From a virus, in IMG/VR virus record IMGVR_UViG_3300040985_000986, positions 1 through 45,762 of that record: DNA of 45,762 nucleotides. The stretch is one strand, 5' to 3'. Made by a program: the position numbers and the translations under genes. The notes beneath the pieces are model-generated. The model ran no database searches. It had not been told where the DNA came from and was given only the letters and a program-made list of their open reading frames with translations. Shown here in pieces: positions 687 to 15,627 of this stretch; within the stretch, counting starts at the first letter, position 1, and each line of letters starts with the position of its first letter.

Positions 687-1115
687 CTACGCGAGGGTCC
701 AGATTCCAGCGGAGTTCATCGTGACGCTCAATGTGTTACCGACCGTGATGGTCACGTCAACCGGAGTGCCTCCACCAGCGTCCAGGTTGCACCAGCACAT
801 GAACTTGCCACTGGGTTTGTAGATAGCTGCATACCTCGCCACTAGTGACCCGGTCGCGGTCCACACAATAGATACCGAGTTCGTCACCTTGACGGTGGTC
901 GTGCCAGACAGAGTCATTGTGCCAAGGGAGATACCACCTAACGTGTAGCCGTTGGCAGTGGGCAACTCGTTCGTTGTGGAGTAGTCCGTCGAATCCGCAG
1001 GCGACCACAAAGAGCTGAACAGCGCAATGTTGAACGTGTCGGTAGCGAGAGCGAAGTCACCGTTGACGAGTGACGTTCGGGCAGTATCAGGGAAGGTCCA
1101 AGGTCCGGCTGTCAT
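687..1115 (-). CDS. Hypothetical virion-associated protein (142 aa).
   Basis: ORF tightly packed between its neighbours. The GY(T/A)xGG and ARYAAIY-type segments recall small phage structural or fibre-associated proteins, from memory only. Confidence 0.65.
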   Translation of the reverse strand: MTAGPWTFPDTARTSLVNGDFALATDTFNIALFSSLWSPADSTDYSTTNELPTANGYTLGGISLGTMTLSGTTTVKVTNSVSIVWTATGSLVARYAAIYKPSGKFMCWCNLDAGGGTPVDVTITVGNTLSVTMNSAGIWTLA

Positions 1116-1128
1116 ATTTGTCCTGCTA

Positions 1129-1587
1129 TTAGCTGGTGATTACTTCGAATGTAGCGACTTCGTTCATGGTTCCCGCGGGCGTTCGCACCCACAACTTCAA
1201 GACCCACGGCCCCGCTACAGCATTGTCTGCCTGGAAAACCACCGCGACCTTGGTGGCATACATGGTCTCAAATGCTGGCACTCCTGGGAGGTCTACCGAT
1301 GGCGTTCCTGACGTGAAGGGGTCAAGAGGCAGCGTGTCCTTCGCAACGAATAGCGGTATGACACTGATGTTTTCGCCGCTCTCTTCGCCATCAAGGATCG
1401 CGGTGGCGGCAGTTATGTCTCCACTGGGTTGCGGCGCCACGCCTTGGCCCTGCTGGCCCACTGCGCGGTGAATGATTCGCCGGAGCGCAGGCCCGTCGGT
1501 AGGGGCGCCTCCCGCCCGGTTGACGATCGACTGATCGCGACTGCGGTCAGTGAACCAGCCGTAGCCCCCTTGTCCTTTGCGGCGCAT
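1129..1587 (-). CDS. Hypothetical protein (152 aa) directly downstream of the portal gene.
   Basis: Its ATG overlaps the portal stop (TGATG). No recognisable motif. Confidence 0.6.
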   Translation of the reverse strand: MRRKGQGGYGWFTDRSRDQSIVNRAGGAPTDGPALRRIIHRAVGQQGQGVAPQPSGDITAATAILDGEESGENISVIPLFVAKDTLPLDPFTSGTPSVDLPGVPAFETMYATKVAVVFQADNAVAGPWVLKLWVRTPAGTMNEVATFEVITS

Positions 1588-3281
1588 CAGCTACCTGCCA
1601 CCTGTGTGAATTGCTGTTCGGGGGGTGTGGGCGCCAGGGAAGATGCCTTGGCGACGTCCCTAGCTACGCCGGCCTGCGCTTGCATCATCTCAGTCTGGGC
1701 GGCTTGGGCCTGCATCTCGTGGCGCGCTTCGCGGAGCTCGTCCGCCTCTTCGCGCGACACAAGCATGCGCTGCGGCACGCCGAGGCGCTCCGCCAAGTCT
1801 TCGACAAACTCGTCGCTGTTCAGCCTGTCGAGGATCTCAGGCTTCATTTGCGCGGCCGCGCCGGCCGTAGCCATAAACCGGTCGATGCTCTTGGCGCCAA
1901 CCGCGCGCTGCGTCTGCGCCAGCATCGAGACGAACTCGATCTCGACGGTGTTGCCTACGAGCTCTTCGGGGATTGGTGGCAACTCACCCGCTTCCAGCAG
2001 GTAATTGAAAGTGAGGTTGACGAGCGGCTCCAGAAGTTCGTTATGTAGTCGCTCAAGCGCCGGCCCGAGCATGAGGAGTTTCTCTTCGTGCCGCTCGGCA
2101 ACCTCAGTTGCGGTCATACTTTTGTCGGTCTGCGCGATCATCAAGAACATGTCGGCGAACCACGCACCGTTGATGCGCGAGCGAATGTCTTGGATGTCCG
2201 CCAGTAGCGGTTGCAGATGCTGTCCCGGCTGCCACAGCGGGCCCGCGCGGTTCGAGCCTGTCGCGTCTGTGTAGTTCTTGCCTCCAGGCGCCAGGTCAGT
2301 CTCTTGGTTCTTCATGTCCGACGGCAATAGCATGCTCGGGTCAGACGCAAAGTCGATCATCTGACTCTTGCGATACTGCTCTTGCTGCAGCTGTATCACG
2401 TCCCCGAGGCCGTTCATGCCAGGGCCCGAACCGTAGTCATCGCCTGGGATCAGCGACCAACGGGGAACCACTGCCGGGAAACGGTTGAACCCAGACTCGC
2501 GCAGCACATTACTCGTGCGGTCTGGTTGCTGCGCGACCTCCCAGTATACGGAGCGCCACGGCATGTTCTCGTTGTCGCTCGCCCGGAAGTCACGGTCCAT
2601 GCGTGGTTCAATCGCGTGGCGCACAGTCACCGGCTCGTCCTGCCCGTTGTTCTCGGCCAACGTGCGGACGCGATCGCTAACTTTCTCGATGCCGAACTCG
2701 CGCACGACCTGCGCGACCGACATCTCCGTCTCGCGGTAGAGCGTCTGCACGTCTCCGTCAGGGCCCGACGCTGCCCTGAATTGCCCGAAGGGCAGAACGT
2801 GCATGTGCACTAGCCGGTCGGGGTGAGGCACTAGAATCGCGGCCGCAGTGCCGTAGAGAGGGCAGTCCGTGTATATCTGCTGCAGGCTACGGTAGACGTT
2901 CGAACCAGAGAACGTCTTCAGAATGATGCGCGTGACGTCGTCGAGGAACACGCGGATGTCGTGCTTGCGCGAGAGCTCAGGGTCGCGGACTCCCATACGG
3001 AACCACGGCCGCGCAGGTGAACTCGCGCCGGCGGTCAGGCCCGCAGACAGAATCTGGATCGAGCGCTGTGGCGTGTTGTCGATGATGTCTTCGTTGCGCG
3101 CCCACCCCTCGTTCCGGTCCTCGGTCCAGAACCGGCCAGACCAGGGTAGGTAGTTGCGCGCGATCTCCTGCCCGTGCGCGCGCCAAGAACTGAAGATCGT
3201 GTCGAGCTTGTGCCACCTGTCCTGCATCTGCTGGACTAGCGTCTGCCCGCTCTTGTTCCGTTGGTTATCGGCGGCTGCCAT
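1587..3281 (-). CDS. Portal protein (T7-type head-to-tail connector), 564 aa.
   Basis: Size, position downstream of the terminase, and an N-terminal region (...NYLPWSGRFW...DIIDNTPQRSIQILSAGLTAGASSPARPWFRMG...) typical of podovirus head-tail connector portals, recognised from memory. Confidence 0.85.
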   Translation of the reverse strand: MAAADNQRNKSGQTLVQQMQDRWHKLDTIFSSWRAHGQEIARNYLPWSGRFWTEDRNEGWARNEDIIDNTPQRSIQILSAGLTAGASSPARPWFRMGVRDPELSRKHDIRVFLDDVTRIILKTFSGSNVYRSLQQIYTDCPLYGTAAAILVPHPDRLVHMHVLPFGQFRAASGPDGDVQTLYRETEMSVAQVVREFGIEKVSDRVRTLAENNGQDEPVTVRHAIEPRMDRDFRASDNENMPWRSVYWEVAQQPDRTSNVLRESGFNRFPAVVPRWSLIPGDDYGSGPGMNGLGDVIQLQQEQYRKSQMIDFASDPSMLLPSDMKNQETDLAPGGKNYTDATGSNRAGPLWQPGQHLQPLLADIQDIRSRINGAWFADMFLMIAQTDKSMTATEVAERHEEKLLMLGPALERLHNELLEPLVNLTFNYLLEAGELPPIPEELVGNTVEIEFVSMLAQTQRAVGAKSIDRFMATAGAAAQMKPEILDRLNSDEFVEDLAERLGVPQRMLVSREEADELREARHEMQAQAAQTEMMQAQAGVARDVAKASSLAPTPPEQQFTQVAGS

Positions 3282-3284
3282 GGG

Positions 3285-3617
3285 TTACTCTCCCAGCAGT
3301 GCTGCAGTGCCAAGCCGCAAGGCTTCGGGGTCGACACCGCCGGCGCCGCTCATGCGGGTGCGCCCTTGCGTAAGGCTACCCTCCGCCTCTTCGGCTTCTA
3401 GCATAGCCATCGGGTCGGCCTGTTCACGGTTAGCGGCAGCATCCTCTCGCGCCTCACTCCGCTTCTGGGCTACCATCTGACCTTGGGCCTGCTTCTGCTG
3501 CTGCTCCTGCCTGCCGCGTGCTCTCTTGGCCTCCGTCTGCTGCATTCTTGCTTGCCCGGCACCTGCTCCTGCTGCGATAACAGCGCCAATAATTGCGCCT
3601 ACTCCTGCACTTACCAT
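3285..3617 (-). CDS. Hypothetical small protein (110 aa) with an N-terminal Gly/Ala-zipper hydrophobic segment and a Q/E/R-rich tail.
   Basis: Starts MVSAGVGAIIGAVIAAGAGAG, followed by a charged low-complexity region. Lies 3 nt upstream of the portal start. Confidence 0.55.
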   Translation of the reverse strand: MVSAGVGAIIGAVIAAGAGAGQARMQQTEAKRARGRQEQQQKQAQGQMVAQKRSEAREDAAANREQADPMAMLEAEEAEGSLTQGRTRMSGAGGVDPEALRLGTAALLGE

Positions 3618-4063
3618 TCGATCTGCTCCTCGTAAAATACTTCGAACTTCGTGAACCGGTCTTTGCTGTCGAGCACACGCTCGAACGCCGACCCCGCTTT
3701 GGCGCCCCAGAGAACCGACGTGGCGGTTAGTGAACGCGCGGCGCGGGAAAATGCGCTCATCAGCTGCTCACACGTAGCTGCGTTACGATGGTCTGGGTCA
3801 ATGTAAAAGACGTCGACCTGCGCGTAGCACCAGCTTTGGTGTTGTATGTGCTTGTCGACGAAAAACCCGGCGACGTAGCCGACGAGCTCTTCGCCAGCCC
3901 AGGCGCCGAACACCAGCAGCTTGTGCGCTGCTTCGGCCAAGGAATACACAGACCAGTCGATGTCGAGCTCGCGGTGGCCCGTCTCCTGCCCGTTCGCTTC
4001 CAGCAGTGCTTCGCCTTGCTCTTGCAAGTCGCAGCACCGGAGTCTGTCTACTCGGACGTCCAC
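3611..4063 (-). CDS. GNAT-like N-acetyltransferase candidate (150 aa).
   Basis: The segment ELVGYVAGFFVD...VDVFYIDPDHRN..CEQLMSAFSRAAR resembles the GNAT beta4-alpha3 core. The canonical Q/RxxGxG/A motif is degenerate, so the call is tentative. Confidence 0.45.
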   Translation of the reverse strand: MDVRVDRLRCCDLQEQGEALLEANGQETGHRELDIDWSVYSLAEAAHKLLVFGAWAGEELVGYVAGFFVDKHIQHQSWCYAQVDVFYIDPDHRNAATCEQLMSAFSRAARSLTATSVLWGAKAGSAFERVLDSKDRFTKFEVFYEEQIEW

Positions 4064-4299
4064 TACCAGAGGGCGATTGTGTTTGTCGGGACGACGCCCA
4101 CGCCCTTGGCCTGGATCTCAAGGATGGTGCCCACTGGCACCGAGTTGAATGCGACAGTGGTGTCGTCGGTCAGCACTACGTTCACCGTGCCGCCAGTTGC
4201 GACGTAGAGTGCCGAACACGGGTTGTCGAAGGTAGAGGAGTTAGTCGCTAGCATCGCGTGGACGTAACGAGCTTTTGTCGTGCTTACAAAGTCGGCCAT
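4063..4299 (-). CDS. Hypothetical small beta-rich protein (78 aa).
   Basis: ORF between terL and the GNAT-like gene. Its end abuts the next start. Confidence 0.55.
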   Translation of the reverse strand: MADFVSTTKARYVHAMLATNSSTFDNPCSALYVATGGTVNVVLTDDTTVAFNSVPVGTILEIQAKGVGVVPTNTIALW

Positions 4300-4338
4300 A
4301 GGGTAGAGCGTGCCACAAAGGACGCCCGCTCTGGGCCC

Positions 4339-5712
4339 CTAGCGCTCCCGCCAGTGCTTCATCGGGTGGTAGCTCCCGCGTCGTGCCTCGTTCCGTGGCC
4401 GCTGCGCCACTGGCGGCGCGAACGGGTGGGTGGGGTCATAGTCGACGTGGATGTTCGGCGGCGGCAGGTCAGCGGCGAACGTGAGGGCCAGCGCGTCCCC
4501 TATGTCAGGCGATCCGGCATCGGGCAGGCGCTTGCGTATCTCGTCCTTGGACTCCAGCTTGTAGCGGCCGCGCACGTCGAACTCGTAGATCGGCGTCGCG
4601 AGCTCTTGCTTGAGCGTGAGCTCGTCTTGGATGGCACCGCCTGCGTCGATCCAGTCGCGTAGCTTGAACCACATTTCGGTGCGCTTGTTTATGTAGAGCT
4701 CCTCCTTGCCGGCCTTGCCTCCGAACGGCACCTCAATCACCGAGTAGTGGAGCATGCGAAGCCGGTCGATCACACCAGAGTCGGCCGCGTCAATGAACAC
4801 GGCGTGAGGCTTGTGCTGCTCGATCTCCTGCGAGACGCGCGCGGCCAGCTGCATGTTGTCCATGCTCCGCATCACGATAGGCGTGAACATCTGCAGCCCC
4901 TGGCGGCGCACGATCACCGACCGGTCGTTGCCGAACCGGGCGCCGTCAACGCCGAGCACGATGGGCGACGCCGCGAGGTCACCCGGCGGGTATTTGCGCG
5001 TGGCAGCGATCTGCACGTCGTGCAGCGACATCAACTGGTCGTCGCCCTGCGCCGAGAAGTCGCACATCATCTCGCGGGCGAACGCCTGCTCCGACATCGT
5101 GTCCCGCATCTCTTCGATCTCGCGAGGGGAGAGGCCCTCGGTCTCGTAGCACGTCCAGAGCCCGACGAACCAGTCCTCGCCCGCCGCCATCCGAGCCAGC
5201 CCCATGTGGTAGATCTGGCTGAACAGGTCGACCCGCTTGACGGTGCCGATGAACAACGCGCCGCCTTCCCGGTCAGCGAGCGCCGGGCGGCAGACCTCGA
5301 ACCATAGCTCGGGCTTCATCTGCGCGACCTCGTCGAGCACTGCGAAGTCGAGACGCAACCCGCGAAGGGCGTCTGGGTTGTCAGCACCAAAGAGGCGCAC
5401 GATGGCGCCGTTATGCTTGAGCGCGACGGAAAGCTCAGACTCGTTGACTGACACATGCCCCGTCGCGATGAAAGGTGCGACGATCTGCTTCAGCCGCGCC
5501 CACGCCACGGCCTTCGCCTGCTTCAGCTGCGGCGCCACATAGACGAACATGCCGAGCGGCTGCGCGAACGTCATCGCGCGGTCGAGCAACTCCATCAACG
5601 CGAGCTCCGTCTTGCCGGCGCGGCGATGCAGGACCAGCACGTTGAATCGTCGCACGCCCTGGTGCGCGGTGCGCTGCCACGCGCGCGGCGTGTATGGGAT
5701 GGTTACCCGCAT
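4339..5712 (-). CDS. terL: Terminase large subunit (457 aa from the ATG at 5712; the track ORF extends to 5754).
   Basis: Walker A-like HRRAGKTE, Walker B-like FAVLDEV, and a C-terminal nuclease-type region. The ATG at 5712 overlaps the stop of the upstream 100-aa ORF by 10 nt, which favours this start. Confidence 0.9.
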   Translation of the reverse strand: MRVTIPYTPRAWQRTAHQGVRRFNVLVLHRRAGKTELALMELLDRAMTFAQPLGMFVYVAPQLKQAKAVAWARLKQIVAPFIATGHVSVNESELSVALKHNGAIVRLFGADNPDALRGLRLDFAVLDEVAQMKPELWFEVCRPALADREGGALFIGTVKRVDLFSQIYHMGLARMAAGEDWFVGLWTCYETEGLSPREIEEMRDTMSEQAFAREMMCDFSAQGDDQLMSLHDVQIAATRKYPPGDLAASPIVLGVDGARFGNDRSVIVRRQGLQMFTPIVMRSMDNMQLAARVSQEIEQHKPHAVFIDAADSGVIDRLRMLHYSVIEVPFGGKAGKEELYINKRTEMWFKLRDWIDAGGAIQDELTLKQELATPIYEFDVRGRYKLESKDEIRKRLPDAGSPDIGDALALTFAADLPPPNIHVDYDPTHPFAPPVAQRPRNEARRGSYHPMKHWRER

Positions 5713-6005
5713 TGTAGTTTGTCTAGCTCCGCTTGGATGGCCACGCGCAGCCACGCGCGCGGCTCACGCTCTAGCTTCTCGTGCAGGTCGACCAGCTGGT
5801 TGACTCGCGTGCACTTCAGCATCTCGTTGCGCTCGGGTGGAGGCGGCGGGGCTGCGGCCTTACGTGCGGGGCGCGCCTCGCGGATCGTCTGCAGGCGCAG
5901 CAACGTGCACGGCTTGCACTTGCGCCGCGTCTTGCCATAGGTGTCGATGTAGGTGTAGGTGTTCTTCTGAACCTTCAGGTGCCCACGGGCGCATGCGTCG
6001 GTCAT
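5703..6005 (-). CDS. Zinc-ribbon protein (100 aa), C-x3-GH ... C-x2-C type.
   Basis: Contains CARGH...GKTRRKCKPC followed by a proline stretch and a helical tail. Translationally coupled on both sides (ATGA at 6002-6005; overlap with terL). Confidence 0.6.
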   Translation of the reverse strand: MTDACARGHLKVQKNTYTYIDTYGKTRRKCKPCTLLRLQTIREARPARKAAAPPPPPERNEMLKCTRVNQLVDLHEKLEREPRAWLRVAIQAELDKLQCG

Positions 6006-6178
6006 TGGGCCGCGTAGATCATGGACACTTGCGGTGCCTCAACCTCGACGAAGGTGTTACCGAGCTCGCGCGCATACACCTTGTTGGCTGCACGCACCAC
6101 GTCGACGGAGTCGGCGACGATCGCATCGCCGATGTGGTTGGACTTCTTGTCTTCGAACACGCAGGGAGAATGGCTCAT
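6002..6178 (-). CDS. Small hypothetical ORF (58 aa), below the ORF-track length cut-off.
   Basis: Hand translation gives MSHSPCVFEDKKSNHIGDAIVADSVDVVRAANKVYARELGNTFVEVEAPQVSMIYAAQ. ATGA overlaps at both ends fill the gap between terS and the zinc-ribbon ORF. Confidence 0.45.
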   Translation of the reverse strand: MSHSPCVFEDKKSNHIGDAIVADSVDVVRAANKVYARELGNTFVEVEAPQVSMIYAAQ

Positions 6179-6639
6179 AGTATGTCTTCGATGCTATCCG
6201 CCGGCAGCACGCGGTGCTCGGCGTCCTTCACTTGTTCCGACGTCCGCGGCACGCCAGTGATGACCTGCAACGACGTGGCGCCGCTGTGCTCGGTCTTGGT
6301 CTTCGGTTGGTAGTCTTCGAGCAGCCGTTCGGCCGCCCACTGCCTCGCCTTGATGCGCGCCTCCATCGCTCGCACTTGCAGCGCGTCGGTCGCGAACTCT
6401 AGCTCGTCGGCGAGGGCGATCACCTCGTCGGCCTGCTCGCGCACGTAGTCCTCGCGCGCCTGGCGGTAGGCATCGAACAGGTCTGGGTGTTTGCGCAGCG
6501 CTGCGCGGAACTTCAGCTTGGTGAAGCCACCGAAGTCGCCGACGTTCTTGCACGCGTGATCGATGCGAATGCCGCGCGCCACGCGGTCGATGACGACGAC
6601 GGCTGCGTCCTTCACTGCGAGTGCATACTTGCGTGTCAT
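6175..6639 (-). CDS. terS: Terminase small subunit candidate (154 aa from the ATG at 6639; the track ORF extends to 6687).
   Basis: The segment ...ALQVRAMEARIKARQWAAERLLEDYQPKTKTEHSG resembles the conserved helix of phage small terminases. It lies two genes upstream of terL. The ATG at 6639 forms an ATGA overlap with the upstream HTH ORF. Confidence 0.6.
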   Translation of the reverse strand: MTRKYALAVKDAAVVVIDRVARGIRIDHACKNVGDFGGFTKLKFRAALRKHPDLFDAYRQAREDYVREQADEVIALADELEFATDALQVRAMEARIKARQWAAERLLEDYQPKTKTEHSGATSLQVITGVPRTSEQVKDAEHRVLPADSIEDIL

Positions 6640-6818
6640 TTGGGAGGTATCCGCTTCAGGAATGGGCGCCGAGTGTAGCGCAGCCACTTGCGCACCGTCT
6701 CGTATGGTTGGCCGACGACGGTAGCCACTTGCCGGAAGGTGAGGCCGTGACGCTCGCGCAGGTCGCGCGCATACCGCACGACGTCGTCGTCGACCTTCCC
6801 TCGCGGCTCGCTGCTCAT
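6636..6818 (-). CDS. Small helix-turn-helix protein (60 aa; internal start of the 115-aa track ORF).
   Basis: The segment LTFRQVATVVGQPYETVRKWL is HTH-like. The upstream part of the track ORF is Arg/Gly-rich off-frame-looking sequence. The start at 6818 forms an ATGA overlap with the preceding ORF. Confidence 0.5.
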   Translation of the reverse strand: MSSEPRGKVDDDVVRYARDLRERHGLTFRQVATVVGQPYETVRKWLRYTRRPFLKRIPPK

Positions 6819-7021
6819 CCGCACCACCAGCGGATGAGCAGCGCGAGCGCGGCGCCGGCCACTGCCAGCACGAGCCACACCGCGACCAGCATGCTGCGCT
6901 GCGCCTCTGCGTCGTGGCCCGCTGCGTCGATGCGCTTGTCGAGCTCGGCGACGAGCGCCGGCAGGCCCTGGCTCGAGGCCCACACGCGCAGGCTGCGTAG
7001 CTCGATCAGCAGCTGCGTCAT
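6815..7021 (-). CDS. Small protein with a C-terminal transmembrane helix (68 aa from the ATG at 7021).
   Basis: Contains MLVAVWLVLAVAGAALALLI. ATGA overlaps at both ends. Confidence 0.5.
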   Translation of the reverse strand: MTQLLIELRSLRVWASSQGLPALVAELDKRIDAAGHDAEAQRSMLVAVWLVLAVAGAALALLIRWWCG

Positions 7022-7218
7022 TTGGCGTCCGAGGGGAACGCCAGCTGCCGCTGCTCGCCGCACCAGTCGTCGACTGACACCTCAGGCCACGCGGGATACG
7101 GGATGCCGTCTTGCGGCAGCATCGGTGGAGGGCGGAGGTGGCAGTAGCCCCGAGGGATGTCGTCGGGGTCGCTGTCCTTGTTGATCTCGAAGAACTGGCA
7201 GGTGCGGCATCGGTTCAT
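7018..7218 (-). CDS. Small Cys-rich protein (66 aa).
   Basis: The pattern CRTC...C...WCGE resembles a small phage protein family, from memory. Confidence 0.55.
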   Translation of the reverse strand: MNRCRTCQFFEINKDSDPDDIPRGYCHLRPPPMLPQDGIPYPAWPEVSVDDWCGEQRQLAFPSDAK

Positions 7219-7223
7219 GGCGC

Positions 7224-7595
7224 CTAGCCTACCACGTCAGCCCACGGTTGGATAACCGCAAGCACACTACCTGGTCTGCGCACCTCGCCGGACCAGCAGC
7301 CGGCCAGCAGCTGCACGTCGACATCGTCTCGGCCGTTGGCCTCGAACACGCCGTCGAGCGCACCCTTGCACCCGGCGATCAGGTTGTCGAGGTCGCGGCG
7401 CCGCTTGTCCGGCGGGGTGAACACCAGCAGCACGCGCAAGGGCCCCAGGGGCAGCGCTGCGGCCGTGATGGCTGCGCCGCCTGCCTCGCGTCGCTGCCTG
7501 CGCCGCTCGCGCGTGCGCGCGTGCACATGCGCGCCACTGTTCGGCATGCACGCTCGAGGCGGCCAGCACAACTCGATCTCTACGCTCTCATTCAT
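7224..7595 (-). CDS. rusA: RusA-family Holliday junction resolvase (123 aa).
   Basis: The motif PPDKRRRDLDNLIAGCKGALDGV matches the RusA catalytic Asp cluster. RBS GAGAGGA lies 7 nt before the ATG. Confidence 0.85.
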   Translation of the reverse strand: MNESVEIELCWPPRACMPNSGAHVHARTRERRRQRREAGGAAITAAALPLGPLRVLLVFTPPDKRRRDLDNLIAGCKGALDGVFEANGRDDVDVQLLAGCWSGEVRRPGSVLAVIQPWADVVG

Positions 7596-7633
7596 TGTCC
7601 AATCCTCTCATCTCTTCCCTGTCGTGCCCTGGT

Positions 7634-7827
7634 CTACGGTTCTTGTAGAACCGTAGCCCGTCAACGGGCTACCGACTCACAGGCGCCAAAGTAGCCCGTC
7701 GTAGCCCGTGACTGGCGACAAACCACTACCCCACAAACACTTGTGGACCGTTGGGCTCGGTAGCCCGTGGCTAGCCCGTCGGTGTCTGAAGGTGTCCAGA
7801 CTCCTCGGTAGCCCGTTAACGGGCTAC
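7634..7827. repeat. Iteron/operator cluster with eight copies of GTAGCCCGT (one variant), a candidate origin or regulator-binding array.
   Basis: Two copies form 9+2+9 palindromes at 7653..7672 and 7808..7827. Direct copies lie at 7691, 7701, 7760 and 7771 (the last is CTAGCCCGT). An overlapping 9-bp inverted repeat CTACGGTTC/GAACCGTAG is at 7634..7656. All lie in the only sizeable non-coding gap (241 bp) of the minus arm. Confidence 0.6.
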
Positions 7828-7836
7828 CATTTCACA

Positions 7837-9945
7837 TCATAACACGCGATCCTCCAGCCACTTGCGGCCGTGTTCGGTCACCTTCATACACTGGTGCCTA
7901 CCGTTGCCGCTCACCTCAACGAAGTTCAGACACTGCCTCAGATCACGCCACAGGGCCCGCCACTGCTGCTGCGTCAACTCACCGCACGCCGCAGCCTCTA
8001 GATCAGTCGCGCGGGTGCCTCGCATAATCTCGATGAGCACCTCCTCGACCACCGCCTGCATCGGTGCCGGCACGAGCTCAGGGTCGCTGCCATTCTTCCA
8101 AGGAATGACCACGCCGCCGGTCTCCATTTCACCGTGCCGGTCCTCGCCGAGCTCGACGCTGCAGATCTCGAAACTGATCGCATCCAGCCGCTGCCAGTTC
8201 TTGCACTTGACCGGCTGCACCTTGACCAGGTCACCGGTCCTCGTCCACGGCTCCTGCGGCGCTCCGCCGAATGCTTCCGCGGCCGCTGGTTTGCCGGCCC
8301 CGCCGGGCACCTGCGAGATGCGGAACTCGGCGTCTGCAGCAGCAATGAAAACGCTCGAACCGCGAGCCCTTGTGTCCTTGTCCTGGCCCGAGTGATGCAC
8401 AAACCCAACCAGGCACCTGAACGTGCGCTGCATCGCCGCCGCGTTCGCCATCGCTGCACTCATGTCCTCGGTGCTGTCCTCCGATCCGCGGCCGTAGTTT
8501 GTCGCGAGTGTGTCGAGCAACACGAGCACCGGTTCGGCCTGCAGCACATCGACAATCGCTTGTGCGTGCCGCTGCATCTGTTCCGCGTCGAGCAGCTGCG
8601 TCGGTGCCGTCGAGAACACCACCGGCACATCCTTCGGATCGATGCCGCGGATCGCGCACTCGGCCGCGAAGCGCGCGGCCACACCGCTGCCGTCCTCGCC
8701 GACGATCACAGCCACGGGCCCGTGCAGGTGCACCGCCATGCCGTGCCAGGTGTCCTCGCCACATGCTATCGCCATCGCCAGCGACAACGCGACCAGGCTC
8801 TTGCCCGCGCCTGGCTTGCCGAACAGCTGCACCAGCCCGCGCCGCGGCAAGAACCCTTGGATCGCAAACTCAGCCGCGCCCATCCAGTCGCGATACGCGG
8901 CGCCATCCATATACAACGGCACGTCCGAAGCGCAGGGAAGCGCTGCGTGCGCTTCCGACGGAAGCGCAACTTCGCCCCACTCGACGGGCAATGGCGGCGG
9001 GCTCGTCGCGTCAGGCGCGAGCTCGCACAACGTGCCCCAGCCCGGCCGGTGCTCCGGCGGATCTACTGCGAAGCTGTGCCATCGCTTCTCTGCGTCGTCT
9101 GCGCTGTAGTTTGGGGCCGTTGCGCTCCATTCGTCCCAGACTTCGAATGGTGTGCCCAACTTGAAACAAGCCATGCCTGCTGCGATCCACGACTCATGCG
9201 GGGTAGCGTCGATCTGCCCCAACATGTGCTGCACTTCGCGGATCGTGCGCGGCACCTCCGATGTCGAGCTCGACTCGCGCTCTGGTCGACGCAGCAACTC
9301 AACCATCGGCGCCGGCGGGTCGTCCTCGCGCAGCAACCCCCACTCGCCTGATGTGTTGCCGACCACGTCACCGGTCACCGTCATGTAGCGACCGCTCGTG
9401 TAGCACTCCAGGTGCGCGCCGGGACCGAACGCATCGCGCGACGAGCTCCGCCAACTAGCCGGCAATGTGCCGGCGTAGATCTGGTGCACGCCGTCGCGGC
9501 CGGGGCTGCGCTCAGTGTAGGTCGGCGGCATGCGCTTGAGCATCGCGTGCGCGGCGTCGATCAGCGCGTCGTTCACGATGACGTGGTCGTAGTCGACAGC
9601 GACGAGCTCCTGGCCGTCGATCATCACGCCGAGACATGCGACGCGATCGTCGGCGAGCGCATACCCGCACGCCTCCTCGAACGTCATCCACGTCGCGCGG
9701 TCGGTCGAGCTCGCCGCGCCGCCGGCGTAGCCGTTGCTACTCAGCGGCGCCTTGCTGCTGAGTGTGCGACCGTCGGCGCGCAGCACCGGGCTGCGATCAG
9801 CGCAGACCCAGATCCGTCGCCGCCTCAATTCTTCCGGCACGTTGCGCAGCACGCGGTCGATGTCGTCTGCGGTAATCCGGGGCAGAATATCTAGCCTCGG
9901 CCCTTTGCGGCCGCGCGGGCCGTCGCTACTCTCTGTGGCAGTCAT
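7837..9945 (-). CDS. Bifunctional primase-polymerase with PriCT-like domain, RecA-type (AAA_25/RepA-like) helicase and a C-terminal winged-helix-like tail (702 aa from the ATG at 9945).
   Basis: Prim-pol motifs LVAVDYDH, SPGRDGVHQIY and ECYTSGRYMTVTG. PriCT-like WIAAGMACFKLG...WDEWS...KRWHSF. Walker A GKPGAGKS. RBS GAGAGGAA precedes the ATG at 9945, whereas the track start at 9984 falls inside a hairpin. Confidence 0.9.
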   Translation of the reverse strand: MTATESSDGPRGRKGPRLDILPRITADDIDRVLRNVPEELRRRRIWVCADRSPVLRADGRTLSSKAPLSSNGYAGGAASSTDRATWMTFEEACGYALADDRVACLGVMIDGQELVAVDYDHVIVNDALIDAAHAMLKRMPPTYTERSPGRDGVHQIYAGTLPASWRSSSRDAFGPGAHLECYTSGRYMTVTGDVVGNTSGEWGLLREDDPPAPMVELLRRPERESSSTSEVPRTIREVQHMLGQIDATPHESWIAAGMACFKLGTPFEVWDEWSATAPNYSADDAEKRWHSFAVDPPEHRPGWGTLCELAPDATSPPPLPVEWGEVALPSEAHAALPCASDVPLYMDGAAYRDWMGAAEFAIQGFLPRRGLVQLFGKPGAGKSLVALSLAMAIACGEDTWHGMAVHLHGPVAVIVGEDGSGVAARFAAECAIRGIDPKDVPVVFSTAPTQLLDAEQMQRHAQAIVDVLQAEPVLVLLDTLATNYGRGSEDSTEDMSAAMANAAAMQRTFRCLVGFVHHSGQDKDTRARGSSVFIAAADAEFRISQVPGGAGKPAAAEAFGGAPQEPWTRTGDLVKVQPVKCKNWQRLDAISFEICSVELGEDRHGEMETGGVVIPWKNGSDPELVPAPMQAVVEEVLIEIMRGTRATDLEAAACGELTQQQWRALWRDLRQCLNFVEVSGNGRHQCMKVTEHGRKWLEDRVL

Positions 9946-9970
9946 GGTTCCTCTCTGGTAAGGGGGACAC

Positions 9971-10009
9971 CGCAGGCCGCACACGTTTGGTCAACGTGTG
10001 CGGCCTGCG
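9971..10009. promoter_or_regulatory. Perfect 17-bp inverted repeat with a 5-nt loop, in the divergent control region between the two arms.
   Basis: CGCAGGCCGCACACGTT-tggtc-AACGTGTGCGGCCTGCG, followed on the plus strand by TTCTTTTC. An unusually AT-rich tract lies at 10049..10072. Confidence 0.5.
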
Positions 10010-10149
10010 TTCTTTTCGGGAGAAAGAAAGCTACAGCCACGGGCAGGGATAAAAAAACTTCAAAATATCTTCAGACACCACTGGACACCTCCCGACAGTT
10101 ATGGGAGAAGAGGGGCTCGCGAAAGTCCTAACCACAACCAACCAACACG

Positions 10150-10980
10150 ATGACCAACAGCTTTACCGACCGCAACACCGCCCGCAAGATCGCCAACTTC
10201 ATCGCCAGCGATGCCCCGCACAACCTAAGCCAGGGCATCCCTGGTTGGGATTGCGTCGACTCCCCGCTGCACGGCAACCGTGACGCCGAGCGGCTCGATG
10301 CTCCCGCCAGATACGACTGCTACTACGTCAAGACGGAGATGGACGGCTCGCCTGTGCAGAGCACGCTAGCCGACCTCGAAGCCTCGCTCGCTGGCGACAA
10401 GAACGCTTCGATCGACACCAAGGTGCTCAAGGTAGTGGTGCTGCACTGGGAACGACAGCTGCCAGGATGCTGGCGCACCTTCGAACTGCTGACGCTCAAG
10501 GACGCCATCGCCGAGATCAAGCGCACCGGTCGCGACAGCATCATTGGTCGCCTTCATATCTGGCCGAACGGCTCGGACAAAGCTCGCAGCTATGTCAACA
10601 ACGTCATCTACGAGCAGACCAACCCTGAAGGCTACGCCGAGATGGTCGCCGAGATCGCTCCGACACCGGAATACAGCTCTGCTGAGAAACTAGCTGACGC
10701 AAGGGCTGCCGAGAACAAGCCGACCACCGAAGACGTGCGGGCCATAATGATGGCCAGAATGTCACCGAAGACCAAGGCAAGTGGCGCTGTCGCAACGAAC
10801 ACGACCAGCCAGGAGCTGTCCGACAAGATTGTCGCCGACCACGCCTTCGCCGCGCGGCCGACCTGCAATCGCTGCAGCGGCAAGCTCACCCAGCTCGACA
10901 TCGCCGGCAGCCTGAGCGAGCTAGGCTTCGACGTCTACGAAGCCATCTGCGGCACCTGCTACGACGCCCACTACTGCTAA
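10150..10980 (+). CDS. Hypothetical early protein (276 aa) with a C-terminal CxxC...CxxC zinc ribbon.
   Basis: First long ORF of the plus arm. Contains CNRCSG...CGTCYDAHYC. No other motif recognised and no clear SD sequence. Confidence 0.6.
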   Translation: MTNSFTDRNTARKIANFIASDAPHNLSQGIPGWDCVDSPLHGNRDAERLDAPARYDCYYVKTEMDGSPVQSTLADLEASLAGDKNASIDTKVLKVVVLHWERQLPGCWRTFELLTLKDAIAEIKRTGRDSIIGRLHIWPNGSDKARSYVNNVIYEQTNPEGYAEMVAEIAPTPEYSSAEKLADARAAENKPTTEDVRAIMMARMSPKTKASGAVATNTTSQELSDKIVADHAFAARPTCNRCSGKLTQLDIAGSLSELGFDVYEAICGTCYDAHYC

Positions 10981-11008
10981 CCCCAACCCAAGACACGAGG
11001 ACGCGACC

Positions 11009-11293
11009 ATGACACTCAAGCCAACCACCACCGACTGCCAGTGCTGCAAGCAGCCTCGCCGCCTCATCGACAAGCGTCGGTATACCTGCCGCACCTGCGG
11101 CGACAAGATCCACTCCTGCTGCGCGTTGGATGGAACGGCTAACGACGCTACCTGCAAGCCGTGCGCTCAACAGGCGCGTGATGCCATGAGGGCTGACAAG
11201 CGGCGCAGCCACACCTGCGCGGTATGCGACAAGCGAGTCACGCACTGGCACGTATTCACCGGCCAAGGCTGCGCCGGGCGACCAACCAACTAA
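11009..11293 (+). CDS. Cys-rich zinc-finger protein (94 aa).
   Basis: Has 12 Cys, mostly in CxxC or CC pairs (CQCC, CRTC, CC, CKPC, CAVC). RBS GAGGA precedes the ATG. Confidence 0.65.
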   Translation: MTLKPTTTDCQCCKQPRRLIDKRRYTCRTCGDKIHSCCALDGTANDATCKPCAQQARDAMRADKRRSHTCAVCDKRVTHWHVFTGQGCAGRPTN

Positions 11294-11320
11294 CCCACCC
11301 CTTACCCGGAGACCAGAACC

Positions 11321-11614
11321 ATGACACGCTCAAAGAAGATGCACTGCGACAACTGCACGACCGAAGACGCGATCCACGGCACGATGCACCCGAAGTGGTT
11401 GCCGACGACTGGGCCAGCTGCTCGGCTAACCCAGGGAACACTTCTTCGAGCCCGCAACCTCACCGACACGGTCTGGGAGTGCATCAACTGCCACGCCCAG
11501 AAGCCACGCCGCGTCTGCAACTCGAAGGTCACCAAGCTGATCAACTCCGATGCCGGCCTCGACGCCATCATCGATCAGATGATCGCTGACCGCGAGGCGA
11601 GGACGCAACAATGA
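11321..11614 (+). CDS. Zinc-ribbon protein (97 aa) that carries one copy of the 43-bp repeat.
   Basis: CDNC ... CINC pairs. RBS GGAG. The repeat at 11409..11451 lies between the two CxxC pairs. Confidence 0.65.
   Translation: MTRSKKMHCDNCTTEDAIHGTMHPKWLPTTGPAARLTQGTLLRARNLTDTVWECINCHAQKPRRVCNSKVTKLINSDAGLDAIIDQMIADREARTQQ
11409..11451. repeat. 43-bp perfect direct repeat, copy A. The partner is at 28387..28429.
   Basis: ctgggccagctgctcggctaacccagggaacacttcttcgagc is identical at both loci, with mismatches immediately outside on both sides. Confidence 0.95.
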
Positions 11615-11838
11615 GAGTAACGAACCAAAGCGTAGCGGATCGACTCCGCCAAAGGGGTTTCGGTGGCATTCAAGCCGACAACCTGAGCATCAACGATGTG
11701 CAGTTCGCCTACGACCAGCTTCGAGACGAAGCAGGTAACCCGCAGCGCGTATATGACGGGCCGCGAGGTGGCGGGTTCGCACGAGGCATTTCCGAGGCTC
11801 GCGTCGATGCGATCATTGACCTTCTCACAACCAACTAA
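11611..11838 (+). CDS. Hypothetical early protein (75 aa).
   Basis: ATGA overlap with the upstream gene. Ends in the conserved CAACCAACTAACCC junction. Confidence 0.6.
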   Translation: MRVTNQSVADRLRQRGFGGIQADNLSINDVQFAYDQLRDEAGNPQRVYDGPRGGGFARGISEARVDAIIDLLTTN

Positions 11839-11864
11839 CCCCCACCAACCTGGAGACCAGAACG

Positions 11865-12152
11865 ATGAACAGCTACGAATACCAAGAGAACCGCAGCAAA
11901 CTAAGCGAAGCCGAGAGGGTATCTTGGCTCCGCAAGAACTGGGCATTGCAGATCGATTCCCTGGACGTTCTCATGCTGTGCGAGCTAGCCGCCAAAGGGC
12001 TTGAACGCGCTTCCCTCGACCAACCCAACTCCACTACCGAGGAGAAACGATTGGCGCGATCGCAGGCGTGGATAGCTGACCAACCCAACTCCACTACCGA
12101 GGAGAAACGATTGGCGCGATCGCAGGCGTGGATAGCTGACCAACCCCACTAA
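11865..12152 (+). CDS. Hypothetical early protein (95 aa) containing an exact in-frame 20-aa duplication.
   Basis: The peptide DQPNSTTEEKRLARSQAWIA occurs twice in tandem. RBS GGAG. Confidence 0.6.
   Translation: MNSYEYQENRSKLSEAERVSWLRKNWALQIDSLDVLMLCELAAKGLERASLDQPNSTTEEKRLARSQAWIADQPNSTTEEKRLARSQAWIADQPH
12018..12137 (+). repeat. Perfect tandem duplication, 2 x 60 bp plus 9 bp of a third unit.
   Basis: 12018..12077 equals 12078..12137 base for base. The next 9 nt (gaccaaccc) restart the unit. Confidence 0.95.
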
Positions 12153-12179
12153 CCCAACCCAAGACACGAGGACATTGAC

Positions 12180-12341
12180 ATGACACTCACGACACAAGAC
12201 CAACAAAGCGAAGCCGCCAAGCTCCGCATTCGCCGCCATCGCGCACGCCTGCTGATGCAGCACCCCTGGTATGGCAGCATCGACACATTAGTCAGGCAAG
12301 CAGCTGCCGACGCTGCCGCCGCCGCTGCCGGAGGCTTCTAA
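12180..12341 (+). CDS. Small hypothetical ORF (53 aa), below the track cut-off.
   Basis: Hand translation gives MTLTTQDQQSEAAKLRIRRHRARLLMQHPWYGSIDTLVRQAAADAAAAAAGGF. It is preceded by the same 21-bp box plus GAGGA RBS as the gene at 11009. Confidence 0.45.
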   Translation: MTLTTQDQQSEAAKLRIRRHRARLLMQHPWYGSIDTLVRQAAADAAAAAAGGF

Positions 12342-12375
12342 CGATGACCCCCACCCCTAACTAAGGACTGAGACC

Positions 12376-12648
12376 ATGACTAAGACCTACACCGACTACA
12401 TCGCCGAACTCGACGACCTGCTCGTGGATACGCGCGGACAGGTAATGACAACCGAAGTGGCACTTTCCATCACGGTCCTCACTGGCCGCGCCGTGATAGC
12501 TGCTCGCGCCGAACTGCTCGACCACATAGGCCAGCCCGCCAACGGTGAGGACATCGACCGCACTGCTGACATATCATGCCCCCGCACTGCTGAGATGGTC
12601 GCCGAGCAGAACTACGAGCGATACATGACCGTGCGGGAGAAACAATGA
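12376..12648 (+). CDS. Hypothetical early protein (90 aa).
   Basis: ORF with an upstream GGACTGAGACC leader. No motif recognised. Confidence 0.6.
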   Translation: MTKTYTDYIAELDDLLVDTRGQVMTTEVALSITVLTGRAVIAARAELLDHIGQPANGEDIDRTADISCPRTAEMVAEQNYERYMTVREKQ

Positions 12649-12694
12649 GCGGCGGACTAGACACCGCCAGACACAACGCTACTCTACTGAAGCC

Positions 12695-13393
12695 ATGACA
12701 TACACCAACGACAAGTTCAACGGGCGCAGCACCACACCGCTGCGCGTCTACAAGAAGGACGGCACAGCCATACCCTTCGACACCCCCTTCGCCAGCTTGC
12801 GCGAGGTCTGCGAAGTGCTGCGCGCCGAGGGCGGCAGTTTCTCGATGTCGCTAGTCCGCGACATCGAATCGGTGCGCGGCCCGACGGCCAAGCAGGCGGC
12901 CTGGGCGCACAAGCTAGCCACTGACGCGATCACGCCGCGCACCGTCGAGCCGACGGTCGGCGGCCTCGCGCCGGTGATCGCGATGCTCGACAAGGCTGCT
13001 CGCCACCAGAAGCGCATGCCCATGATCGAGCTCCGCGCCGGCGATCAGCGCGTCGTGATCAAGCGCCGCAAGGACGGCAGCGCAGCCGTCACCGATGGGC
13101 GCCCCTACGGCGACAACACGCTGTTCGGCTTCGTCGAGGCGGGCGGCAACTACCGCCCGACGCGGGGCAACTTGCGCGCGGTCGAGACCGTGCTGCGCGA
13201 GCTCGCCGCCGACCCGGCGAGGGTCGCAGGGCAACACGGCGTCGCGACAGGCAACTGCTGCTTTTGCAACACGGCGCTGTCCGACAGACGTAGCCGCTCG
13301 GTCGGCTACGGCCCGACCTGCGCGGGCAAGTTCGGCTTGCCATGGGGCGACACCAGCGCCGCCGACGCCGCCGACAAGGCGGCCAAGGCATGA
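12695..13393 (+). CDS. DUF6011-type zinc-binding protein (232 aa).
   Basis: The C-terminal CCFCNTALSDRRSRSVGYGPTCAGKFGLPW matches the DUF6011 signature as I remember it. Confidence 0.65.
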   Translation: MTYTNDKFNGRSTTPLRVYKKDGTAIPFDTPFASLREVCEVLRAEGGSFSMSLVRDIESVRGPTAKQAAWAHKLATDAITPRTVEPTVGGLAPVIAMLDKAARHQKRMPMIELRAGDQRVVIKRRKDGSAAVTDGRPYGDNTLFGFVEAGGNYRPTRGNLRAVETVLRELAADPARVAGQHGVATGNCCFCNTALSDRRSRSVGYGPTCAGKFGLPWGDTSAADAADKAAKA

Positions 13394-13545
13394 GCCCCCG
13401 CGCACGCTACAGGAGGGCCATGGGGCGGCAAGACCGCCAAGGCGTGAGCCCTCGCACACGTTACAAGCTGGAGCTCGTCGGCGCCGGCATTCTTATCGCC
13501 CTCACAATCCTCGGCGGCCTCGCCGCCATGTGCCTGATCAGATGA
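13390..13545 (+). CDS. Small membrane protein (51 aa from the ATG at 13390).
   Basis: ATGA overlap with the upstream gene. Duplicated SPR(A/T)RY(R/K) segment, then a TM helix LVGAGILIALTILGGLAAMCLI. Confidence 0.45.
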   Translation: MSPRARYRRAMGRQDRQGVSPRTRYKLELVGAGILIALTILGGLAAMCLIR

Positions 13546-13778
13546 TGAACCTCTACGAAATCACCGGCATGGCCGACCGCGACCGCGCCATAATCGCGGC
13601 GCCTCACCCTACGGCCGCGGACGAGCTCTGCCCGTTCTACGTCGACACCATCGATCAGATCGGCACGGTCAACGTCGAAGAGGCGCGCGTGCTGCTCGCA
13701 GTGAACGAGCACGACGTCGCCGCCGACGGCGTCTGGGTTCGCGTCGACGTCATCGACGACAGCGGGCTGATCTCGTGA
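13543..13778 (+). CDS. Hypothetical acidic protein (78 aa; the real part of the 227-aa track ORF).
   Basis: MMNLYEITG... begins right after the previous stop. The upstream part of the track ORF overlaps the DUF6011 gene in an Arg/Pro-rich frame. Its stop overlaps the GTG start of the SNF2 gene (GTGA). Confidence 0.5.
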
Positions 13779-15103
13779 GACCCTTTGCCTACCAACGCGC
13801 CGGCATCGACTTCCTGGCCGACAATAAACGCGCGGCCCTGCTCGACGAGCCAGGGCTAGGCAAGACCGGTCAAGCGCTCGAAGCGATCAACAGGATGCGG
13901 GCCAAGCGCACGCTGCTGATCGTGCCGCTGGTCGTCGTGCCCAACTGGGAACGTGAACTCGGCATGTGGTCGCCGTGGGCCAGTTACCAACGGCTCGCGA
14001 CAGGACGTGCCAAGGTCGACCCTGACGTGTCTGTCGTGATATGTCCGACGTCGCTACTGAGTCGACGCAACAATGTCGTCGAGCAGCTGGCCGGCCAGGA
14101 CTGGGACGTCGTCGTCGTTGACGAGGCGCACCACTACAAGAATCACGAGTCGACGCGCACGGTGAACCTTTACGGCCGCGCCGGCATCGCAGTGCGCGCC
14201 GAGCACCTCTGGCTGCTATCCGGCACGCTGGTGCCGAACAATCCCTCTGAGGTCTGGACGCACCTGCTGCACCTGGCCCCAGAAGCGATGGCGCGCAACG
14301 GGCGCCCGATGTCGCACTACGCATTCGTCCAGCGCTACTGCGAGTTCGAAGAGACGCGGTTCGGCCGCAAGATCGTCGGCGCCAAGAACACGGCCGAGCT
14401 CCGCGACATCATTAGCAGCTGTTCGCTAAGGCGCCTGCAGCGCAACGTGCTCGCCGATCTGCCGGCCATGCGCCGAGCTACCGTCGACCTGCCCAAGCCC
14501 ACCAGAAAGCAGATGGCGCCGCTGTCGGATCTGCTGGACAGGATGTCCGAGGAGCTACGCACCGACGTGCGCAAGCTCGACGGCGCCGAGCTCTTGCAGG
14601 TGTTCCAGCAGTCGGACAGCTTCAGCACATACCGCCGCCTGTGCGGCGAGCTCAAGGCCGAGCTCGCCGCCGAGTGGCTGGGCGAGGAGCTCGACTCGGG
14701 CATGGCCAAGGTCGTCGTGTTCGCGCAGCACCGCGGCGTCATCGCGGAGTTGGCGGTGGCGCTGGCCGACTACGGCGTCGAGCAGATCCACGGCGGCGTC
14801 AAGGCCGACGCGCGGCAGGCGGCGGTCGACCGGTTCCAGCAGCAGCCCGACGCACGCGTGATCATCTGCCAGCTGACGGCGGCGTCGGTCGGCATCACGC
14901 TAACCGCGAGCACCAACGCAGTCTTCGTCGAGGCCGACTGGGTGCCGGGCACCAACATACAAGCAGAGAAACGCATACACCGCATCGGGCAATCCCACCC
15001 TGTGCTGGTCCGATATTTACAGCTGGCCGATTCGATCGACCAGATCATCACCGAAGCTCTGGTCACTAAGACCAGCATGATCGCGGCCCTTGAGACGGCC
15101 TAG
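13775..15103 (+). CDS. SNF2/RAD54-family helicase (442 aa).
   Basis: Motif I LLDEPGLGKTGQA, motif II VVVDEAHHYKN, and C-terminal helicase motifs (...GVKADARQAAVDRFQ..., QAEKRIHRIGQ). Confidence 0.9.
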   Translation: MRPFAYQRAGIDFLADNKRAALLDEPGLGKTGQALEAINRMRAKRTLLIVPLVVVPNWERELGMWSPWASYQRLATGRAKVDPDVSVVICPTSLLSRRNNVVEQLAGQDWDVVVVDEAHHYKNHESTRTVNLYGRAGIAVRAEHLWLLSGTLVPNNPSEVWTHLLHLAPEAMARNGRPMSHYAFVQRYCEFEETRFGRKIVGAKNTAELRDIISSCSLRRLQRNVLADLPAMRRATVDLPKPTRKQMAPLSDLLDRMSEELRTDVRKLDGAELLQVFQQSDSFSTYRRLCGELKAELAAEWLGEELDSGMAKVVVFAQHRGVIAELAVALADYGVEQIHGGVKADARQAAVDRFQQQPDARVIICQLTAASVGITLTASTNAVFVEADWVPGTNIQAEKRIHRIGQSHPVLVRYLQLADSIDQIITEALVTKTSMIAALETA

Positions 15104-15112
15104 CATTAGTCC

Positions 15113-15140
15113 TTGACACTCCTGGGCATGTTCTTACAGT
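15113..15140 (+). promoter_or_regulatory. Sigma70-like promoter candidate.
   Basis: TTGACA (15113..15118), a 16-nt spacer, then TACAGT (15135..15140). It sits in the 62-bp gap before the gene at 15166. Confidence 0.4.
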
Positions 15141-15165
15141 CCTGCCCCCAACCCACTAGACACAT

Positions 15166-15627
15166 ATGAAAATCTCCATCGACGTCACCCCCGAGTCTCC
15201 CGAAGAACTGGCCCGCCTGTTCGCTTTCATCTCCGGCCGTGATGGCATCGAGTTACCCCCACTGGCAGCGGCAGCTGTGGCTAAGGCTTCGGTGGCCGAG
15301 AACGCAGCCGCAGAAGCCGAAGAGATCACGACGGCGACCAAGAAGGCCGCCAAGAAGGCGACCAAGAAGGCGACCAAGAAGGCGAAGAGCGCCGACACCA
15401 AGGAGGCCAAGTTCGCGGAGGCGAAAGCTGAACCCGCCGCAGACTCGCGTAAGCAGGTCGAGAACGACTTGCGCGCGTTCGCAGCGGAGCACGGCATGCC
15501 ACAGTTGCGCGACGCCCTCAAGGACGCGGCGCTGCCCCGCCTGCAGGATGCGAGCGACGACGACCTGCCCAAGTTCCGCGCCGTCCTTGACGGGTTGCGT
15601 GGCGCACAGCAAGGGGATCTCCTCTAG
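15166..15627 (+). CDS. Ala/Lys-rich protein with a KKA(A/T) repeat (153 aa), possibly nucleic-acid binding.
   Basis: TKKAAKKATKKATKKAK is encoded by 12-bp tandem repeats at about 15343..15385. It is the first gene of the DUF2800/DUF2815/polymerase block. Confidence 0.6.
   Translation: MKISIDVTPESPEELARLFAFISGRDGIELPPLAAAAVAKASVAENAAAEAEEITTATKKAAKKATKKATKKAKSADTKEAKFAEAKAEPAADSRKQVENDLRAFAAEHGMPQLRDALKDAALPRLQDASDDDLPKFRAVLDGLRGAQQGDLL

Follow-up and report, generated by a model that had tools for sequence, protein, structure and literature searches.

The window analysed here is the whole stretch of 45,762 nucleotides, with a GC content of 62%. Because the same 107 nt stand at its start and at its end, it appears to be the complete genome, assembled as a circle, of a podovirus-like phage from marine metagenomes, about 45.66 kb long. 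After its small genes, the plus-strand block encodes an SNF2 helicase, a DUF2800/PD-(D/E)XK nuclease, an Enc34-type single-stranded DNA-binding protein, a family A DNA polymerase and a small HTH protein. The remaining genome lies on the minus strand and encodes a Prim-Pol/AAA_25 primase-helicase, the terminase subunits, a T7-type portal, a GP7 capsid protein, Bbp16, large tail proteins and a giant gene. Pfam scans of the larger ORFs revealed no reverse transcriptase, integrase or transposase, and the tRNA and Rfam scans of the window were both without matches. The best matches of the DNA polymerase are at most 36% identical, and no GenBank phage was matched by blastn with both repeat regions or by tblastn with the small protein described below. 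The phage therefore has no cultured relative and belongs to an uncultured, marine lineage, whose members come from Tara and other marine metagenomes. The following features are at the centre of the analysis:

10150 to 19787, plus strand: block of small genes without assigned function, followed by replication genes.
11321 to 11614, plus strand: small early gene of 97 aa, zinc-ribbon-like, with the motifs C9xxC12 and C54xxC57 and a C-terminal helix.
11402 to 11408, plus strand: left junction of the insertion, recipient CCGACGA against CCGCCGG in the donor flank (28380-28386).
11407 to 11451, plus strand: insertion of 45 nt in frame (GA plus a 43-mer), the derived, recipient copy.
19789 to 30066, minus strand: giant gene of 3425 aa, a polyvalent protein with Pfam domains.
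28387 to 28429, minus strand: residues 546-560 (ELEEVFPGLAEQLAQ) of the giant protein, the ancestral, donor copy.

The two genes are linked by a 43-mer, CTGGGCCAGCTGCTCGGCTAACCCAGGGAACACTTCTTCGAGC, which has exactly two copies in the 45.7-kb genome, at 11409-11451 and at 28387-28429, both in plus-strand orientation. The initial annotation had judged such a match to be beyond chance. This was confirmed by 100 dinucleotide-preserving shuffles of the genome, none of which gave any 43-mer match even when up to 3 mismatches were tolerated (chance expectation 0). The wider similarity around the 43-mer spans 50 nt at 96% identity (11402-11451 vs 28380-28429). Besides this pair and the 107-nt terminal redundancy, the only exact repeat of at least 24 nt in the window is a 60-nt tandem duplication at 12018-12137. 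Consistent with the earlier description, the copies are read on opposite strands: the plus-strand ORF at 11321-11614 reads the segment as ..TGPAARLTQGTLLRA.., and the minus-strand ORF at 19789-30066 reads it as ..ELEEVFPGLAEQLAQ.., at residues 546-560. With two such different peptides, the statement that the pair is not a duplicated protein domain also stands, and the perfect complementarity of 43 nt between the two mRNAs holds as sequence. Folded as RNA, the 43-mer forms only an ordinary hairpin of 5-10 bp (z-scores of -0.3 and -2.0). Searches of IMG/VR with the exact 43-mer, with its degenerate back-translation, with single proteins and with profiles returned no matches. The central 24-mer of the repeat had no match in the GTDB genomes and thus provides no CRISPR spacer or host link.

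To judge from its domains, the giant protein belongs to the polyvalent class, in which several unrelated effector and LPD domains are joined in one very large polypeptide. Above the curated Pfam cut-offs it contains LPD22 (residues 57-140), LPD23 (717-772) and ART-PolyVal (1782-1918), and residues 882-947 give a weak M78/zincin-like match. Polyvalent proteins were predicted by Iyer et al. to enter with the injected phage DNA (PMC5512222). Residues 440-700 of the giant protein served as the query of an exhaustive HMMER search, which gave 68 homologs. In the alignment of the best 10 of these 68 (P0007-P0015 range), the LTVEELEEVFPGLAEQLAQP segment is gap-free, and homologs keep it without indels from 61% identity down to about 23-25%, with counterparts such as LTVEEVEEVFPGLTEQLDKS in P0007 (61% identical) and ITIDDLEQVFPGIKDQYGLD in P0014 (23%). 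Furthermore, a Tara contig (L009) whose giant gene is 93% identical to that of the window carries the same 43-mer in the same context. Since the peptide aligns without gaps in the homologs and L009 has the identical 43-mer, the giant-gene copy is the ancestral one, an ordinary, vertically inherited coding sequence.

We also considered whether the exact 43-mer in L009 marks a constrained nucleic-acid element and rejected this, as the two giant genes agree exactly in 41% of all 43-nt windows anyway. L009 1-687 has no blastn match anywhere in the window, and the next 3 kb are 93% identical to window 29760-26779. The stretch upstream of window 29760 (to 30066 and beyond) thus appears to have been replaced in L009.

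The small gene ends in a stop codon that overlaps the start of the next gene (ATGA). Its protein family comprises seven homolog clusters, that of the window and six others, and both CxxC knuckles are kept in all of them, in line with its first description as a zinc-ribbon gene. C9, C12, C54 and C57 are invariant across five aligned sequences, and P0074 and P0075 retain both knuckles. The protein has no match in Pfam or PHROG. An AlphaFold2 model built on the five-sequence alignment reached a mean pLDDT of 67 and placed strands at residues 14-16, 20-22, 25-28 and 52-54, around the knuckles; motif and model together support a zinc-ribbon fold with medium confidence. The pLDDT is 74-84 in the flanks of the insert, including the strands around the knuckles, and in the C-terminal helix, and below 50 at residues 31-48, the insert region. 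Between the knuckles, four of the six other clusters have short loops (P0002 ...KWLPTNNLSDTVWEC, P0003 ...KWLPTRHLSDTVWEC, P0074 ...KWEPTQNLGETVWEC and P0005 ...KWLPIYGPWWEC). The remaining two, the divergent P0004 and P0075, have long loops that are homologous to each other (VDYAARGWQLNHWEPELVMALDAP vs VDLAAQQRARFHRDPMLDYGAP) and unrelated to the loop of the window. The low pLDDT of the insert region and the variation in loop length across the family argue that the insertion site is a tolerant surface loop. Against its nearest relatives the gene shows a dN/dS of 0.5-0.76, and on this measure it evolves fast. In P0002 (L007, L008) and P0004 (L001 10001-10420) the zinc-ribbon ORF runs 40-65 residues further, and the C-terminal extension of P0004 is Cys-rich and terminates in RPTN and the stop codon. 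These longer ORFs hint at fusion to an adjacent small gene or at read-through into it.

Comparison of the small gene with its relatives indicates the direction of copying. The TGPAARLTQGTLLRA segment of the window occurs in none of the six other homolog clusters. Across the site, the window DNA runs from TTGCCGAC through GA and the 43-mer into CCGCAACCTC. The corresponding empty site joins TTGCCGAC directly to CCGCCACCTC in L006 and TTACCGAC directly to CAACAACCTC in L007 and L008. In the DNA alignment L005, L006, L007 and L008 all lack the segment, and the gain in the window is exactly 45 nt, which lengthens the loop that separates the zinc knuckles by about 15 residues (T30-A44). In-silico excision of 11407-11451 leaves an 82-aa ORF that is colinear with the 82-aa P0003. 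Because the sites of the relatives are empty, the gain is a clean 45 nt and excision restores the 82-aa ORF, the small-gene copy is the derived one, copied from the giant gene of the same genome or of a co-infecting, near-identical one.

The junctions themselves share little. On the left, the ancestral recipient CCGAC matches the donor CCGCC at 4 of 5 positions, followed by GA in the recipient vs GG in the donor; on the right, a single nucleotide (C) is shared. Such microhomology would fit template switching, although it is too short to be diagnostic. The GA would be either a 2-nt filler or a donor GG with one later change. The two copies differ at 0 of 43 positions, or at 1 of 45 if the copied tract included GG. 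As the copies have not diverged over these 43 nt while the sampled strains differ from the window by 3-7%, the insertion is, by this comparison, recent. One of the three reading frames of the 45 nt contains a stop codon; the frame used has none, and in it the second knuckle and the C-terminal helix stay intact, as does the ATGA overlap with the gene downstream. None of the usual signs of a mobile element was found in the insertion: there are no terminal inverted repeats, any target duplication is at most 1 nt, and the copies number only two.

The window is a metagenome assembly without a cultured relative, and a chimeric path or chimeric reads might in principle have placed giant-gene sequence into the small gene. 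We regard such an artefact as very unlikely. A separately assembled contig of 1753 nt from JGI sample 3300038307 (L004) corresponds to window 10008-11760 and differs from it at one position only, 10061. Both junctions fall within this contig, and the insert is flanked on either side by over 300 nt of context. Since this contig has the same insert and the same junctions, a chimera peculiar to the assembly of the window is unlikely. In addition, junction k-mers that are absent from the reads cannot arise by graph misassembly, and the insert is exactly 45 nt long, in frame and located where the relatives also differ in length. The window and L004 together represent the only insert-bearing lineage.

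Taken with the junctions, these comparisons point to a recent, one-off templated insertion from the giant gene into the small zinc-ribbon gene, an origin that we consider highly probable. During replication or break repair in the phage genome pool, 43-45 nt of the giant gene would have been copied, in the same DNA orientation, into the loop between the CxxC knuckles of the small gene. As the small gene is transcribed in the opposite direction, the patch would be read antisense and would yield an unrelated peptide of 15 residues. The insert may have survived because it is a multiple of three, is free of stops in the frame used and fell into a loop that tolerates changes in length. The most likely route would be template switching by a polymerase, or synthesis-dependent repair, with weak microhomology to prime it (CCGnC at the left junction, 1 nt at the right one). 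This route is plausible, with the caveat that the microhomology is weak and that the present donor does not explain the GA. The donor is intact, the sequence has just two copies and an enzyme encoded by an element was not found, which shows, at the level of sequence, a copy-paste event. The phage encodes its own family A DNA polymerase, Prim-Pol primase-helicase, PD-(D/E)XK nuclease and Enc34-type single-stranded DNA-binding protein. Both the complementarity of the mRNAs and the direct repeat would then be by-products without a selected function.

Templated insertions have been described in cellular (eukaryotic) genomes (PMC8421209, PMC11724301). The insertion in this phage resembles these events, of the MMBIR type or illegitimate recombination, in that a short, distant stretch was copied to a new site and the donor stayed intact. 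It also resembles them in having little or no junction homology and no target-site duplication, with no element-encoded enzyme at hand. Unlike the published cases, which concern eukaryotic cells, it concerns a phage, has become fixed in one lineage and happens to be in frame, so that part of another protein is now encoded by the antisense strand of a conserved gene. The locus thus offers a clean, datable example of how one event of illegitimate recombination added 15 residues from the antisense strand of a conserved gene, with donor, recipient, empty site and both junctions all identifiable. The event is nevertheless of an ordinary kind; it calls for no new mechanism and settles no open question.

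A diversity-generating retroelement also leaves a short repeat pair in one phage genome, with one copy at a variable position in a protein-coding gene. Template and variable repeats of such elements differ at adenines, whereas the copies in the window are identical at 43 of 43 positions, and the changed site is a loop in the middle of a zinc-ribbon protein, not a C-terminal variable region. Readings as a diversity-generating retroelement, a transposon or a MITE were rejected, given that no reverse transcriptase or transposase was found in the scanned larger ORFs and that there are no terminal repeats and no further copies.

The templated origin could be the same and the insert nonetheless have been kept by selection on the protein, for a re-lengthened or diversified loop in a fast-evolving early protein, perhaps one with a role in anti-defence or in taking over the host. 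Within the family, no part varies more than this loop. A long loop of about 25 residues is homologous between P0004 and P0075, and the loops of four clusters are short, so that the lineage of the window would have re-expanded a short loop. The dN/dS of 0.5-0.76 against the nearest relatives and the in-frame, stop-free state of the insert are compatible with such selection. However, an insert that is in frame and free of stops would also get past simple purifying selection that acts on the gene's downstream half. Moreover, the inserted peptide is unlike the long loop, the comparison at the DNA level is not significant (p = 0.14-0.35), and the absence of Pfam and PHROG matches gives the small protein no function on which to base the argument. 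We therefore think it rather unlikely that selection on the protein kept the insert, and favour templated insertion into a tolerant loop.

Recurrent capture of loops from the phage's own genome was considered separately and rejected. The long loop of L001 has no second copy, either in the 20 kb of L001 examined or in the window, and its similarity to the donor is not significant.

The initial annotation had proposed that the repeat is a trans-antisense element, in which pairing between the early mRNA and that of the giant gene would lead to RNase III cleavage or silencing. Perfect pairing over 43 nt is long enough for an RNase III substrate, and the two genes lie in oppositely oriented blocks, one for replication and one for structure, which makes different times of expression plausible. 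The pair is, however, missing in all relatives: the segment is present in none of the six other small-protein clusters, including that of the L001 genome, which is 96-97% identical to the window over the sampled flanks. Absence of the pair from relatives, which the annotation had itself named as speaking against the idea, is thus what the comparison shows. The target lies 1.64 kb inside a 10.3-kb ORF, away from the ribosome-binding site and translation start, and both partners are translated coding sequence. A small RNA is not delimited by any promoter or terminator at the copy, and Rfam gave no match. The 43-mer in L009 is unremarkable, given the 41% of identical 43-nt windows between the giant genes. 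A functional reading as silencing or RNase III processing is thus unsupported, and we consider it very improbable.

Trans-encoded antisense regulation with RNase III, as known from bacteria and phages, shares with this locus a perfect complementarity of 43 nt between distant loci. Unlike in the known systems, the pairing in the window is not conserved, there is no dedicated small transcript, and the target lies deep in an ORF. Co-expression and duplex-dependent cleavage are the defining evidence for such systems; here the complementarity is known from sequence alone. It is conceivable, though very doubtful, that in this one strain the insertion created a working antisense link that lowers, delays or processes the mRNA of the polyvalent protein. 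If so, a regulatory RNA interaction would be seen here soon after a copy-paste mutation gave rise to it, a rare view of such origins.

The retention of a direct repeat that could mediate a 17-kb deletion had also been held to need explaining. Recombination between the copies would delete the helicase, the nuclease, the single-stranded DNA-binding protein, the polymerase and 84% of the giant gene. As the deletion takes the replication genes, its products are dead ends and are simply lost. With a copy as recent as this one (0 of 43 positions diverged), retention does not require an explanation; the persistence of so young a repeat is not informative.

To place the insertion in its genomic neighbourhood, we compared the window with its closest genome, the Tara scaffold behind L001. 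The two are 96-97% identical over window 1074-10669 and 12639-22006, and at the protein level the DNA polymerase is 99% and the C-terminus of the giant protein 98% identical. The 2-kb early module that corresponds to window 10669-12639 has been replaced in L001, and only the zinc-ribbon gene is recognisably shared there, with 75% nucleotide identity and an unrelated long loop. The 1.3-kb early region of the insertion also holds the only other fresh rearrangements of the genome:

12018 to 12137, in the ORF at 11865-12152: perfect tandem duplication of 60 nt, in frame, repeating the 20 residues DQPNSTTEEKRLARSQAWIA.
10982 to 11023 and 12153 to 12194: dispersed repeat of 42 nt, with 83% identity and 21 nt exact.

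The 60-nt duplication is flanked by the short repeat GACCAACCC and looks like a fresh slippage event. Clustering of these rearrangements fits a recombination-prone early module and marks the early genes at 10.7-12.6 kb as the plastic part of this phage lineage.

Several smaller observations concern the early regions of the window and its relatives. The 42-nt dispersed repeat covers an intergenic stretch together with the beginnings of two genes (ATGACACTCA...). The motif (C)GACCAACCAACTAACCC closes several small early genes and was found at 11276-11301, 11826-11846 and 12137-12160 in the window and at 10400-10425 in L001. The motif contains the stop codon, with the peptide ending in ...RPTN in two genes, and after it comes a ribosome-binding stretch that is similar from case to case, GGAGACCAGAACC-ATG. 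Such motifs could be gene-boundary sequences that favour the exchange of modules. The early region of L006 contains exact intergenic repeats of 65 nt at 1530-1594 and 2559-2623, with a partial copy at 1088. They include TTGACT-17 nt-TAAGCT and are probably early promoters of the sigma-70 type in repeated form; nothing equivalent is repeated in the window.

Outside the early module, 9971-10009 holds a perfect hairpin of 17 bp with a T-rich run behind it, which is terminator-like on the plus strand. It is located at the point of divergence between the minus-strand primase-helicase gene (start 9984) and the plus-strand early block. Two inverted-repeat arms of 32 nt, at 7644-7675 and 7805-7836, are 84% complementary, with a GGGCTA/TAGCCC hairpin in each arm; the two arms are located in and next to the gap that separates the minus-strand genes 7224-7595 and 7837-9984. 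At 44896-45111, three tandem units of 72 nt (the second and third 76% and 63% identical to the first) fall within the gene of a 391-aa protein with a concanavalin-like lectin domain, which suggests a repeated unit of 24 residues in a probable tail or receptor-binding protein. Finally, a run of 12-nt repeats (GACCAAGAAGGC-like) occupies 15324-15383 within the ORF at 15166-15627, and L001 carries a similar run at about 13789-13822.
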